Shown piece by piece: positions 1,067-43,698 of a stretch of 44,068 nucleotides of DNA (the first letter of the stretch is position 1; each line of letters opens with the position of its first letter). Source of the DNA: a virus. Lineage: Duplodnaviria > Heunggongvirae > Uroviricota > Caudoviricetes. A program made the translations under genes and the position numbers. The stretch lies in the IMG/VR virus record IMGVR_UViG_2541047745_000010; one strand, 5' to 3'. The notes under the pieces were generated by a model. It worked only from the letters and a program-made list of their open reading frames with translations, was not told where the DNA came from and did no database searches.

Positions 1067-1100
1067 TAAAAAGAGACCGAACACGATTCCTGTTTTCGTC
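1067..1100. repeat. left prophage junction: degenerate copy of the sdsR 3' terminator region (att core)
   Basis: aaaaagagaccgaacacgattcctgttttcgtc here versus aaaaaaagaccgaatacgattcctgtattcggtc at 43467..43500. Confidence 0.6.
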
Positions 1101-1204
1101 AACAAACAAGAAACCCTTTTTAAATTAATTTGTTAAGCAAAATTACGCTCATCTTTTAATCCCAAACACGTACCATTGCATATTAATGCATTCAATTAGT
1201 TACC

Positions 1205-1239
1205 ATTTTTTTCGAGTTTTTTAGAGAAAATTTCGGGAC
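1205..1239. repeat. candidate integrase arm-type binding motifs (left end)
   Basis: tttttttcgagt and aaaatttcgggac resemble the tandem aaatttcgag/aatttcgggg repeats at 43401..43432. Confidence 0.3.
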
Positions 1240-1397
1240 TATTTCAGACCAATCCAGGCAGAAATAAGCAATCCCTATATTGAATGATTCCGCAACAATT
1301 ATGTAAAATCACCTCCGGCTGATTTTCATTCAAACTCGCGCTATCGAACGTCCATCAGCCAGCCGTGGCACGTTCTTGCATACGACGTGCTACGGTT

Positions 1398-1952
1398 TCA
1401 TTTATCTCCGACCGGAAACTTCTTATACAAAGTCGATACGCCAACATCATAAATGATCGCCACCTTCTGGCGAGGAACTCCTGATGCAATTAGTCGCCCG
1501 GCCTGCGCCCATTGTTCTGGTGTAAGTTTGGGACGACGTCCACCAATTCGTCCCTGTGCGCGAGCAGCTTCCAGTCCAGCTTTTGTTCGTTCAACAATCA
1601 GTTCTCGTTCCATTTCAGCCAGGGCCCCCATCACATGAAAGAAAAAACGCCCCATCGGTGTGCTGGTATCAATAGCATCCGTCAGGCTGCGAAAATTAAC
1701 GCCACGTTCGCGCAACTCCTCAACCAGAATGACCAGATGCCGCATACTACGCCCCAGCCGATCCAGCTTCCAGACAACCAGAGTGTCACCTGCCGATAAT
1801 GTCCTGAGCAGTTTTTTCAGTCCCGGCCTTTCGGACTTTGTACCGCTTATCTTGTCTTCAAAAATCAGCTCGCATCCTGCACAGTTCAACGCATTACGTT
1901 GTAGATCGGTATTCTGGTCATTTGTTGATACGCGTACATAGCCAATAAGCAT
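1398..1952 (-). CDS. pin: serine recombinase, DNA invertase of the Pin/Gin/Hin/Cin family
   Basis: 184 aa from ATG at 1952 with AGGGAG RBS; N-terminal YVRVSTxxQ catalytic-serine motif and C-terminal HTH; sits beside the invertible tail-fibre segment. Confidence 0.9.
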   Translation of the reverse strand: MLIGYVRVSTNDQNTDLQRNALNCAGCELIFEDKISGTKSERPGLKKLLRTLSAGDTLVVWKLDRLGRSMRHLVILVEELRERGVNFRSLTDAIDTSTPMGRFFFHVMGALAEMERELIVERTKAGLEAARAQGRIGGRRPKLTPEQWAQAGRLIASGVPRQKVAIIYDVGVSTLYKKFPVGDK

Positions 1953-2006
1953 GGTAGATCTCCCTGACAAAAGCAGGAATGATGCCATTTGCTCGTTATT
2001 TCTGCA

Positions 2007-2032
2007 TTTTCATAAACGTTGGTTTGGGAGAA
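2007..2032. repeat. left crossover site of the invertible segment (hix/gix-like, 12-2-12)
   Basis: ttttcataaacg TT ggtttgggagaa; right half is the exact reverse complement of ttctcccaaacc at 3823..3834. Confidence 0.7.
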
Positions 2033-2485
2033 GGCTCTGCTTTGCCTGTTGGCGTTCCGGTGCCGTGGCCTCTTGCCGTCCCGCCAGCGGGATGGCTCAA
2101 GTGTAATGGAGCTGCTTTCACGGCCTCACAATACCCCCAACTGGCGCTTGCCTATCCGTCGCTCAGACTGCCTGATTTGCGCGGGGAGTTTATCCGTGGC
2201 TGGGATGACGGGCGCGGGGTTGACTCAGGGCGTACGATACTGTCATTTCAGGAGGGGACTATCGTTTCCGGCTTTGATGACAATGATACAGGGGATATCA
2301 GTTCGCTGGGTTCTGCAAACTATGGATTCGGTGACAGTCTTACCTCCAATCAGTGGAACACCATAAATGGCAAAAAGTGGATATTTGATGCATCCAGCAA
2401 AGGTGCACAAAGATATGATTGGTGGGCTTACGTATCCGCGCGTCCCCGTAATATTGCATTTAATTATATCGTGAGAGCTGCATAA
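2021..2485 (+). CDS. silent alternative tail-fibre C-terminal segment (Sv'), promoterless in this orientation
   Basis: Frame opens at the crossover core (GLGEGSALPVG...); tail-collar-like motif PAGWLKCNGAAF...LPDLRGEFIRG; would fuse in frame to the fibre N-terminus after inversion. Confidence 0.65.
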   Translation, partial: GLGEGSALPVGVPVPWPLAVPPAGWLKCNGAAFTASQYPQLALAYPSLRLPDLRGEFIRGWDDGRGVDSGRTILSFQEGTIVSGFDDNDTGDISSLGSANYGFGDSLTSNQWNTINGKKWIFDASSKGAQRYDWWAYVSARPRNIAFNYIVRAA

Positions 2486-3087
2486 TGAATGACGCTGTAT
2501 TAAATAACGAATTTATTGCCACTCAAGCAGGAAATATCACCGTTTATAACTATGACGGTGAGACGCGGGAATATATTTCTGCATCAACTGAATATCTTTC
2601 TGTCGGCGTCGGCATCCCGGCATGTTCCTGTCTGGATGCACCAGGTACACATAAAGCTGGTTATGCAATCTGTCGCTCTGTAGATTTAAATTCATGGGAA
2701 TATGTGCCAGACCATCGCGGTGAAGTTGTCTATAGTACCGAAACGGGAGATACCAAAGAAATCACAGTTCCGGGTGATTACCCTGAAAATACAACCACTA
2801 TCGCCCCATTAACGCCATACGATAAATGGGATGGTGAGAAATGGATGACGGATACCGAGGTACAGCATAGCGCCGCACTAGACGCGGCAGAAGCACAGCG
2901 CCAGTCACTGATTAATGCAGCAATGGCTTCCATTAGTCTGATTCAGCTGAAATTACAGGCCGGACGGAAGTTGACGCAGGCAGAAACAACCCGACTTAAC
3001 GCCGTGCTGGATTACATTGACGCGGTGACGGCAACAGATACCAGCACCGCGCCGGATGTCATCTGGCCTGAACTGCCGGAGGAGTAG
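2485..3087 (+). CDS. tail fibre assembly protein (Tfa', partner of Sv')
   Basis: 200 aa; C-terminal DYIDAVTATDTSTAPDVIWPELP motif typical of Tfa chaperones; start overlaps Sv' stop. Confidence 0.8.
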   Translation: MNDAVLNNEFIATQAGNITVYNYDGETREYISASTEYLSVGVGIPACSCLDAPGTHKAGYAICRSVDLNSWEYVPDHRGEVVYSTETGDTKEITVPGDYPENTTTIAPLTPYDKWDGEKWMTDTEVQHSAALDAAEAQRQSLINAAMASISLIQLKLQAGRKLTQAETTRLNAVLDYIDAVTATDTSTAPDVIWPELPEE

Positions 3088-41837: not shown

Positions 41838-42018
41838 AATAACTGCCACTATTGAAAAAGAAGGTGGCACTCCTACTAACTGGACAAGATATTCAAAATC
41901 TAAATTAACGAAATCAGAATGCGAAAAAATGCTCTCAGGGAAAAAAGAAGCAGGCGTGTCCAGAGAGCAGAAAGTAAAGCTGATAAATTTTAATTGCGAG
42001 AAACTTCTGTCCTCGTGA
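41830..42018 (+). CDS. small hypothetical protein (YdaC-position)
   Basis: 62 aa from MYKITAT with GGAGG RBS. Confidence 0.5.
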   Translation: MYKITATIEKEGGTPTNWTRYSKSKLTKSECEKMLSGKKEAGVSREQKVKLINFNCEKLLSS

Positions 42019-42118
42019 GTTGCATTATATACAAATTAGAACTTCATAGCTGATTATTAAAAATCAACCACACCCGCCAGTATTCTGTATATTTACTGGC
42101 GGTCATATCGTAAGAGGT

Positions 42119-42406
42119 ATGGCAATGAATCTTGTGACACTCAAAACGTGGGGAAAACTCAGATATCCGGATAACCCACCATCAATATCAACGCTGAGAC
42201 GATGGGCAAGGAATGGAAACATTTATCCTGCACCTGAACTACACGGGAGGAGTTACAGGGTGGTTCCGGAAGCTTTCTATATCAACCCAAATAAGGTTGA
42301 TACCGATATAACACACCATCAGCCTAATGGGCGACAAGGGAGAGACAGTCCGTTACTGGAGAAGTTAAAACATGCAGCGGAAAAAATACGATCCCAATTT
42401 GCCTAA
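42119..42406 (+). CDS. xis: excisionase (lambda Xis-like)
   Basis: 95 aa; LVTLKTWGKLRYPDNPPSISTLRRWARNGNIYPAPELHGRSYRV resembles lambda Xis; overlaps the integrase start. Confidence 0.75.
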   Translation: MAMNLVTLKTWGKLRYPDNPPSISTLRRWARNGNIYPAPELHGRSYRVVPEAFYINPNKVDTDITHHQPNGRQGRDSPLLEKLKHAAEKIRSQFA

Positions 42407-43335
42407 AAACTTAACATATCGAAGGAGGGACAAAGCATATTACTGGCGCAACCCTCTGACGAAAGAAGAATTTACACTAGGTAAAATTTCAAGAAGAGAT
42501 GCGTTACAAAACGATTCTTATAAGGAGAAAAGTGTCCAGAAATACTTATAAAATTCGGGTAAATCAACTGGAGACAATAAAAGAAAAATTAGGAGGAGTT
42601 TTACTGACAGAAATAACCACTCGCCATATTGCCGAGTTTCTTGATTTGTGGATTGAAGGAGGGAAAAACACGATGGCAGGATCAATGCGTTCTGTGTTAT
42701 CTGATATGTTCCGCGAGGCCATTGTTGAAGGACGTATATCTCAAAATCCAGTAACGCCAACAAGAGCACCGAAAATAGTAGTTACAAGAGAACGGCTGAA
42801 ACTAAAGACATACAACTGCATCAGGGAGGCAGCAGATCAACTTCCGACATGGTTCCCATTAGCTATGGACTTAGCCCTTGTAACAGGACAACGTCGCGAA
42901 GACATAACAAATATGCGGTTCAGTGAGATTTATGATGATCGTCTCCACATCAGGCAAATTAAGACAGGAATGATGATTGCTATCCCCCTGTCACTCAGCC
43001 TTCCTGTCGCTGGTTTACGACTTGGTACAGTAGTTGAACAGTGCCGCATGGTAAGTAGGGGGGATTATCTAATCAGTGCCGGGATTAGAAAAAACAGCCC
43101 TGACGGCAGCATTCACCCGGACGGCCTGACAAAGAAATTTGTCGCAGCCAGAAAATTAACAGGTATCCAGTTCAGTGAAAACCCACCAACTTTTCACGAG
43201 ATCAGAAGCCTGGCTGGACGATTGTACAAAGAAACATGTGGGGAAGAATTTGCTCAACGTCTACTTGGCCACACATCGGAGAAGACAACAAAAATGTATC
43301 TTGATGAGAGAGAAAAAACGTACTTACTGCTCTGA
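42372..43335 (+). pseudogene. int: lambda-family tyrosine integrase, apparently frameshifted (N-terminal arm-binding domain and catalytic body in different frames)
   Basis: Frame A 42372..42551 encodes MQRKKYDPNLPKNLTYRRRDKAYYWRNPLTKEEFTLGKISRRD... then TAA; frame B opens at 42481 and runs to 43335 through the core-binding and catalytic domains (catalytic Tyr in TTKMYLDE). Confidence 0.55.
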
Positions 43336-43400
43336 TTTTAACGTAAATGGATTGTTAAATGTGTTTTGGTTGTGATATAACCAAAAAAGACCGGAATACA

Positions 43401-43432
43401 GAAATTCGAGTAAATTTCGAGTAATTTCGGGG
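43401..43432. repeat. three tandem direct repeats (gaaattcgagt / aaatttcgagt / aatttcgggg), candidate integrase arm-type sites
   Basis: Between the integrase stop and the att core; related motifs at 1205..1239. Confidence 0.4.
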
Positions 43433-43466
43433 AGACGTTTGCAACTAATTGATTTTAAATACAATT

Positions 43467-43569
43467 AAAAAAAGACCGAATACGATTCCTGTATTCGGTC
43501 CAGGGAAATGGCTCTTGGGAGAGAGCCGTGCGCTAAAAGTTGGCATTAATGCAGGCTTAGTTGCCTTGC
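43467..43569 (-). ncRNA. sdsR: SdsR (RyeB) small RNA, intact
   Basis: Reverse complement reads gcaaggcaactaagcctgcattaatgccaacttttagcgcacggctctctcccaagagccatttccctggaccgaatacaggaatcgtattcggtcttttttt, matching recalled SdsR including its terminator. Confidence 0.8.
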
Positions 43570-43698
43570 TCTTTAAGAATAGATGACGACGCCAGGTTTT
43601 CCAGTTTGCGTGCAAAATGGTCAATAAAAAGCGTGGTGGTCATCAGCTTAAATGTTAAAAACCGCCCGTTCTGGTGAAAGAACTGAGGCGGTTTTTTA
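43467..43698 (+). ncRNA. ryeA: 3' portion of RyeA/SraC (antisense partner of SdsR), probably separated from its 5' part by the prophage
   Basis: Inferred from the known bidirectional sdsR/ryeA arrangement; ends at the 43660..43700 terminator; 5' boundary not determinable here. Confidence 0.3.

Follow-up and report, generated by a model that had tools for sequence, protein, structure and literature searches.

Can a phage that inserts into a locus read on both strands restore its target on both? The question is raised by IMG/VR virus record IMGVR_UViG_2541047745_000010, a stretch of 44,068 nucleotides (the window, meaning the whole stretch of DNA that was analysed) in which a prophage lies between the Escherichia coli genes pphA and yebY. 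There it interrupts the locus that encodes the small RNA SdsR (also called RyeB) on the minus strand and its antisense partner RyeA on the plus strand. We favour a reading, held at a probability of roughly 0.88, in which a phage with a lambda-type integrase entered the loop of the sdsR terminator, rebuilt SdsR, cut RyeA from its promoter and uncoupled pphA. The mechanism is ordinary site-specific integration at a published hot spot, of which this is a further instance, in E. coli. A preliminary description of the record had already placed a prophage at the sdsR/ryeA locus; the present analysis refines it by recognising a hybrid left junction, a chimeric SdsR and the separation of pphA from the sdsR promoter, and adds that the integrase gene is a pseudogene.

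Integration within the sdsR terminator

Both junctions were aligned with the empty pphA-yebY locus of E. coli K-12, which holds the site as a single copy and reads ...ATAAAAAGAGACCGAACACGATTCCTGTATTCGGTCCAGGG... / ...CTTTTAACAGATAAAAAGAGACCGAACACGATTCCTGTATTCGGTCCAGGGAAATGG.... At the left junction, identity to K-12 extends through position 1093 and the following base (1094) is T where K-12 has A; at the right junction, identity begins at 43482, and position 43481 is T where K-12 has C. Since K-12 identity ends at 1093 and resumes at 43482, the break point falls inside the 3′ end of sdsR, as the preliminary description had expected, and more precisely in the terminator loop. The left flank is present in all 5426 complete E. 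coli genomes, most of which match the window only to about position 1098.

The attachment (att) sites share an 11-bp identity block, ACGATTCCTGT, which comprises the entire 7-nt loop of the sdsR terminator together with two bases of each stem arm (SdsR nucleotides 79-89 of 104), and this core lies within the last ~23 bp of sdsR. When up to three mismatches were allowed, the 20-mer AGACCGAAYACGATTCCTGT matched the window at 1074-1093 and 43473-43492 only, with 0.01 matches expected by chance. These direct repeats flank an element whose tyrosine integrase gene (int) adjoins one of them, at a distance of 146 bp from the core of the right site, attR.

A predicted phage site, attP, was built in silico by joining the phage-derived halves of attR and of the left site, attL, and was searched against phage records. 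It was found contiguous in PP818812.1 (98% query coverage, 94% identity), a record that agrees with the prediction at every base for over 60 bp to each side of the core and whose integrase protein (Int) is 98% identical to that of this prophage. A Salmonella prophage record, ZC-S1_prp, has the same core between arms of its own and an Int that is 72.6% identical. Taken together, these comparisons show that the element entered by classic recombination between attP and the bacterial site, attB, at the sdsR terminator loop.

The matching segment of PP818812.1 (44478-47508) belongs to a record labelled 'Actinobacillus phage vB_Apl-pPE4', yet its attP fits the E. coli sdsR terminator. Because of that fit, and because its Int is 98% identical to the Int of an E. 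coli prophage, the host label looks doubtful.

A reconstituted SdsR

The preliminary description had regarded SdsR as intact, terminator hairpin included. On the minus strand, the Rfam model SdsR_RyeB (RF00111) matched positions 43467-43566 over its full length (model positions 1-100 of 100) with 118.1 bits, against a gathering score of 38, and the K-12 annotation of sdsR (1923104-1923207, minus strand), once mapped onto the window, bears out the limits 43467-43569 given in the preliminary description. The gene is complete, but it is chimeric. Positions 43493-43569 are bacterial, 43482-43492 form the shared core, and 43467-43481 come from the phage; this last segment makes up most of the 3′ stem arm and the U-tract. 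In all, the phage supplies the last 15-26 nt of SdsR.

Mature SdsR differs from that of K-12 at two nucleotides only, G>A at nucleotide 90 and C>U at nucleotide 99, both of which lie in the phage-derived segment. A third difference from the K-12 annotation concerns position 1 of the old 104-nt annotation, which sits immediately upstream of the true start (Choi et al.). The substitution at nucleotide 90 turns a U.G pair into U-A, and that at nucleotide 99 changes the tail from UCUCUUUUU in K-12 to UCUUUUUUU in the lysogen, so that the U-tract is now uninterrupted. The predicted fold of the terminator is -15.8 kcal/mol in K-12 and in the lysogen alike. Because both changes in the mature RNA fall in the part supplied by the phage, 'intact' is best understood here as reconstituted and chimeric.

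A divided RyeA

In K-12, ryeA is annotated at 1923066-1923337 on the plus strand (272 nt); its start has been mapped by primer extension and 5′ rapid amplification of cDNA ends, and its promoter is sigma-70 dependent (PMC6610125). Through the alignment, the K-12 +1 corresponds to window position 1030, which lies 53 nt to the left of the recombination core, and the core itself to RyeA +54 to +64. The native sigma-70 promoter is found just upstream of the remaining 64-nt stub, with an inferred -10 element TATGGT at 1017-1022. Because the promoter region and the stub together differ from K-12 by one base, the ryeA promoter should still fire, now into the prophage and antisense to pinE, the gene at that end of the element.

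The rest of the gene lies at the far end of the prophage. This RyeA body differs from K-12 at four positions, spans all the sequence complementary to SdsR nucleotides 1-78 and retains the terminator hairpin (~43657-43697; predicted fold -20.0 kcal/mol), which thus lies with it beside yebY. No contiguous RyeA unit runs from the mapped sigma-70 start to the terminator, the prophage separating position 1030 from the body, which begins at 43493. As mapped from K-12, RyeA is split within +54 to +64: its promoter and stub remain next to pphA, and the body and terminator, next to yebY, lack the native promoter. The preliminary description had proposed this same division, promoter-proximal part on the pphA side and 3′ part on the yebY side, and the mapped coordinates agree with it. 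Regeneration of SdsR together with displacement of the RyeA 5′ part, seen here at the level of sequence, is the arrangement expected of insertion at the hot spot.

These results are consistent with the following mechanism. The Int of a temperate phage would recombine attP with an attB located in the loop of the Rho-independent terminator of sdsR, strand exchange taking place within the 11-bp block. On its int-proximal (P) side, attP duplicates the greater part of the terminator's 3′ stem arm, followed by an A-run, so that bases encoded by the phage cap the bacterial body of sdsR, giving an equally stable hairpin with an uninterrupted U-tract and thereby reconstituting SdsR. The opposite (P′) side of attP is a poor imitation of the 5′ stem arm. 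In the predicted folds, attL reaches -5.5 kcal/mol (z = +0.41), and attL and free attP alike give about -5 kcal/mol with z near +0.4, neither forming a hairpin. RyeA, which runs rightward across the core, is cut by the same event, leaving its promoter and stub pointing into the prophage and depriving the SdsR-complementary body and its terminator of the native promoter.

Integrase and attachment-site arms

The intact allele of the integrase gene, present in strain AVS0196, encodes arm-binding, core-binding and catalytic domains (Arm-DNA-bind_1, Phage_int_M and Phage_integrase; PF09003, PF22022 and PF00589). Its product matches lambda Int (5j0n) with E = 1.4e-71 and conserves the catalytic R, K, H-x-x-R, H and Y residues, as befits a lambda-type integrase; the copy in the window lacks this complete set of domains. 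Compared with AVS0196 it is missing 113 bp, and the frame shifts after codon 44. What remains is a 59-amino-acid N-terminal fragment followed by a 278-amino-acid open reading frame (42499-43335) that keeps the central and catalytic domains and has lost the arm-binding domain. The exact 278-amino-acid reading frame is not on record, and the deletion allele was absent from the 25 best-matching complete E. coli genomes, all of which are undeleted. A contig search with Int returned two loci only, one of which, from Shigella, is full of indels. Because the deletion removes the arm-binding domain and the frame, the prophage is probably unable to excise on its own, and the arrangement would then be fixed.

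The arms of the att sites carry the motifs expected around such an integrase. The motif AAWTTCGRG occurs seven times in the window, against 2.2 matches expected, and four of the seven lie in the att arms: three are tandem repeats in the P arm, conserved in ZC-S1_prp, and a further copy lies in the P′ arm at 1229-1237. The P arm also holds AATCAATTAGTTG, a perfect consensus site for IHF and one of two such matches in the 44-kb window; an IHF consensus stands at the same fixed offset of 19 nt from the core in 22 other, otherwise different P arms. We read this part of the P arm as recombination machinery, consisting of the putative IHF site and the three arm-type repeats, and keep a promoter in the same stretch as an unlikely rival.

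A second core-like copy, AAAAAAGACCGGAATAC, was observed in the P arm at 43383-43399, with the real AAAAAAGACCGAATAC 85 bp to its right. This copy, which ZC-S1_prp conserves, adjoins an 8-bp inverted repeat, TTTTGGTT/AACCAAAA, and it may be an extra site for Int or for an accessory protein.

Alternative readings of the locus

The preliminary description had recorded the sequence at 1067-1100 as a degenerate copy of the sdsR 3′ end. The repeat itself is real, AGACCGAAYACGATTCCTGT being confined to the two junctions, but the word 'degenerate' did not survive comparison: the site is a hybrid attL. Had the left copy instead been a decayed duplicate, or a scar left by some earlier integration event that had nothing to do with this prophage, its several differences from the right copy and its failure to fold as a hairpin would be accounted for. 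We rejected this idea, which is hardly credible given that K-12 holds a single copy, that the bases of the left copy up to 1093 are those of that single K-12 copy while those from 1094 belong to the P′ arm of the PP818812.1 attP, and that its apparent degeneracy equals exactly the difference between attB and attP; the comparison of attB, attP, attL and attR already refutes it. It is also improbable that the prophage is still fully mobile, the int deletion being an assembly error or having no effect. The remaining prophage shows no differences from the AVS0196 copy, xis (the excisionase gene) and all late genes look intact, and a reading frame for the catalytic domain is kept, all of which such mobility would lead one to expect. 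However, GCA_000457405.1 (KE699702.1) has the deleted allele too, as does a Logan assembly of SRR958196 that was made independently and agrees with the window at every base over 3180 bp, and we therefore regard the deletion as real. It takes the end of the arm-binding domain and shifts the frame, and lambda-type Int requires arm binding for both integrative and excisive recombination.

Several further points weigh against a prophage that is locked in place and has deprived the cell of RyeA. Excision could yet occur with Int provided in trans by a related phage, and the 278-amino-acid reading frame keeps its catalytic domain. All of the consequences for expression set out below are inferred from published K-12 and Salmonella experiments. 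The Rfam model SraC_RyeA (RF00101) has a full-length match at attR (43463-43607, model positions 1-145 of 145), whose score of 180 bits lies slightly above the 175.1 bits obtained with K-12. Expression of SraC has been recorded in both Salmonella and Shigella although its promoters are not the same from one species to another (PMC3333887). An antisense RNA covering SdsR could yet arise from a sigma-70-like match in the P arm or by read-through from int, in which case RyeA would have been re-headed and not lost, and the circuit would be largely preserved. We consider this unlikely, though deserving of some weight. The P-arm sequence, TTTGCA-16-TACAAT (43438-43465, plus strand, with a predicted start near 43472), is the only sigma-70-like match facing sdsR, but its agreement at 9 of 12 positions is the minimum that the scan accepts, and the scan found two matches against 0.8 expected. 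It overlaps the perfect IHF consensus, whose position is conserved across many unrelated P arms, and conservation of the sequence at 43438-43465 can be attributed to this overlap; in the Salmonella relative ZC-S1_prp the -10-like hexamer is out of register. Read-through from int is made less likely by the fact that int is normally silent in a lambda lysogen. In Salmonella, lysogeny by PhiW104 lowered RyeA, according to the summary of Balbontin 2008 in PMC7380047. The full-length Rfam match was itself rejected as evidence against a split: counted from the sdsR 3′ end, the mapped K-12 start lies 38 nt out and the start of the 145-nt model only 4 nt, which places the latter 34 nt downstream of the former. 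In the window, it is the phage P arm that matches the first ~19 positions of the model. Since the model lacks the true 5′ end, a full-length match at attR is compatible with a divided RyeA.

The consensus 5′ end of the Rfam RyeA model, AAUUAAAAAAAGACCGAAUAC, is nearer to the phage P-arm version (43463-43483) than to the native K-12 sequence, AGAUAAAAAGAGACCGAACAC, and the model may have been built partly on loci that carry integrated elements. For annotation, the lesson is that a full-length Rfam RyeA match does not prove an intact RyeA transcription unit.

Predicted consequences for expression

With integration into the sdsR terminator as the preferred reading, its likely effects can be derived from what is reported for the uninterrupted locus. 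In K-12, RyeA pairs with SdsR and triggers its degradation, cis-interference between ryeA and sdsR has been reported, and most transcription of pphA originates at the sdsR promoter and reads through the sdsR terminator (PMC6610125). In the window, 42 kb lie between the sdsR promoter and both the ryeA promoter and pphA, so these three links should be abolished. By analogy, the lysogen should resemble a mutant of the ryeA promoter, in that full-length RyeA would be scarce, convergent interference on the sdsR promoter absent, and SdsR more abundant or earlier; for pphA it should resemble an sdsR-promoter mutant, in which the sigma-S-dependent read-through expression is lost. In Salmonella, lysogeny by PhiW104 at this site was accompanied by lower ryeA and higher ryeB, as Balbontin 2008 is summarised in PMC7380047. 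A terminator scan predicted none between pinE and pphA; since pinE also faces pphA and attL is unfolded, pphA may receive read-through from the prophage gene instead.

The locus illustrates how a phage can repair its target RNA gene on one strand and, in doing so, unavoidably break the overlapping antisense gene on the other. Later work has likened SdsR and RyeA to a toxin-antitoxin pair and has identified the sdsR promoter as the chief source of pphA transcription, which leads to the prediction that lysogens have lower RyeA, higher or earlier SdsR, and a pphA uncoupled from sigma-S. Such changes would be expected in a considerable minority of E. coli, among them major non-O157 lineages of Shiga toxin-producing E. 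coli (STEC). More tentatively, lysogeny might act as a natural double regulatory mutation in the ~4% of E. coli that carry this integrase at the site, O26, O103 and O111 STEC among them: removal of the RyeA antitoxin or sponge and of convergent interference, with a cleaner SdsR U-tract, might shift SdsR-controlled traits (tolC, mutS, porins), while pphA would move from sigma-S control to pinE read-through. If this were true, the phage would rewire the stationary-phase physiology of its host merely by its position of integration.

Recurrence of the integration site

The preliminary description had counted the 3′ end of sdsR among known integration hot spots, and evidence from Salmonella, from E. 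coli genomes and from IMG/VR bears this out. An insertion hot spot at ryeA/ryeB in Salmonella was published in 2008 (Balbontin 2008, as summarised in PMC7380047), and a survey of 500 prophages noted ryeB as a target of Salmonella phages (PMC3603311). For E. coli itself, the open-access literature that was searched yielded no account of a prophage at pphA-yebY or sdsR, a result that speaks only weakly against there being one. Of the 5426 complete E. coli genomes, 5189 hold a 401-bp K-12 probe spanning the site in one piece, and in about 237 the probe is interrupted. The int gene described here stands beside sdsR in 228 of the 5426, including O26:H11, O103 and O111 STEC. About nine interrupted genomes lack a good match to this int region; one of them, strain E9, carries a related prophage, seen at its left end.

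A scan of IMG/VR for the core returned at least 120 stretches, in which the core is joined to at least 35 distinct P′ arm sequences. Among the matches listed, a terminator fold is predicted for every one of the 69 junctions whose right arm is bacterial (mean -15.8 kcal/mol) and for none of the 49 whose right (P′) arm comes from a phage (mean -5.8 kcal/mol). This contrast suggests that many unrelated elements bring only that half of the terminator which is required for SdsR to be rebuilt. Several distinct P′ arm types were also seen, among the matches listed, joined to the E. coli pphA-side flank, which indicates that more than one phage lineage uses the site in E. coli.

Prophage content

The identity of the element as a prophage is borne out by its gene content, which runs in order from pinE through tail, head, lysis, replication and immunity genes to recET, xis and int. 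The cargo includes pinE with an invertible tail-fibre segment, baseplate, sheath and tube, head, terminase and lysis genes, together with hokD/sok, replication genes, cI/cro-like regulators, DicF, kil, recE/recT, ralR/RalA, xis and int. The structural region (1094-24000) is 97.8% identical at the nucleotide level over 77% of its length to the E. coli myophage vB_EcoM-611R5, which with its relatives belongs to a group of induced E. coli myophages, and 82.0% identical over 73% to Salmonella phage SEN34. Its nucleotide similarity over the head, tail and baseplate module places the element among the SEN34-like temperate myoviruses. The coordinates of the features are collected in Table 1.

Table 1. 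Positions of the junctions, RNA genes, recombination elements and flanking genes in the 44,068-nt window
Feature	Position	Strand	Basis or remark
yebW-pphA flank	1-933		left bacterial side of the window
pphA (phosphoprotein phosphatase 1)	277..933	-	annotation of near-identical locus; PMC6610125
RyeA 5′ stub, +1 to +64	1030..1093	+	K-12 coordinates mapped by alignment; start from PMC6610125
attL, hybrid site	1067..1100		bacterial arm (A-run and AGACCGAACAC), then core, then phage P′ arm (TTTCGTC...)
11-bp identity block ACGATTCCTGT, left copy, crossover region	1083..1093		comparison of attB, attL, attR and phage attP
Prophage, 42,388 bp	1094..43481		SEN34-like myovirus structural module and lambdoid early region (recET, kil, cI/cro-like genes, ydaT/ydaV)
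pinE serine invertase, last prophage gene	1398..1952	-	Pfam Resolvase and HTH_7; oriented toward attL and pphA
Excisionase	42125..42406	+	Pfam Exc PF07825, E = 6e-14
Lambda-type tyrosine integrase, pseudogene here	42372..43335	+	Pfam; AVS0196 comparison; 113-bp deletion, junction 42502|42503
Three tandem AAWTTCGRG repeats in P arm, candidate arm-type Int binding sites	43402..43431	+	motif scan
IHF consensus site AATCAATTAGTTG in P arm	43442..43454	-	overlaps promoter-like match
SdsR (RyeB), complete but chimeric	43467..43569	-	Rfam; K-12 comparison; terminator fold
ACGATTCCTGT, right copy (attR core)	43482..43492		comparison of attB, attL, attR and phage attP
RyeA body, K-12 +65 to about +272 (~208 nt)	43493..~43699	+	K-12 annotation and alignment
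yebY, right bacterial flank	43727..44068	-

Three RNAs inside the prophage were recognised by Rfam: DicF (37088-37139, plus strand, 60.9 bits), Sok with hokD (29178-29352, minus strand, 118.1 bits) and RalA with ralR (41836-42014, minus strand, 219.2 bits). Three antisense or small RNA systems have thus been imported while the host's own RyeA was disrupted. Adjoining pinE, two inverted repeats of 20 nt (2014-2033 and 3822-3841; 95% complementary, 1788 nt apart) sit in oppositely oriented tail-fibre and tail-fibre-assembly genes, an arrangement suggestive of an invertible host-range segment of the Pin/Gin type. If the int deletion is set aside, the prophage and the AVS0196 copy show zero differences over 42.3 kb, whereas the chromosomal flanks (1-1093 and 43482-44068; 1.7 kb) differ at 12 positions. 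An identical prophage between differing flanks suggests that the phage has recently spread horizontally between different E. coli backgrounds.

Comparison with known integration systems

The closest parallel is the Salmonella hot spot used by PhiW104 (Balbontin, Figueroa-Bossi, Casadesus and Bossi, J Bacteriol 2008). In the available account of that work, as here, the att site lies in the terminal part of ryeB/sdsR, in the Rho-independent terminator and internal to ryeA; RyeB survives, other sequence takes the place of the 5′ part of ryeA, and many different elements occupy the site. The present case differs in its host, E. coli, in having pphA as the left neighbour, in its SEN34-like myovirus with a Rac-like early region, and in the inactivation of int. 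With SEN34 and phages of the vB_EcoM-611R5 type the element shares its structural module (82% and 98% nucleotide identity, respectively, over 73-77% of 1094-24000), whereas its early region and integration module are mosaic.

The recombination apparatus resembles the Int-Xis-IHF system of lambda and HK022. The intact Int allele has the same three domains and catalytic residues and is ~41% identical to HK022 Int; an Exc-family Xis likewise lies upstream, tandem arm-type repeats accompany an IHF consensus, and the 3′ end of int faces the att site. While lambda targets the gal-bio intergenic attB, the target here is the terminator stem-loop of a small RNA gene, whose two stem arms give inverted symmetry around the crossover, as is the case for integrases that target transfer RNA (tRNA) genes. 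Elements that insert into tRNA genes or transfer-messenger RNA (tmRNA) genes, such as P4, P22 and those at ssrA, similarly regenerate the gene with a phage-borne replacement 3′ end and displace the native 3′ end to the far junction. In contrast to those targets, the locus described here is bidirectional, and restoration of SdsR breaks RyeA on the other strand and severs the sdsR-pphA read-through operon.

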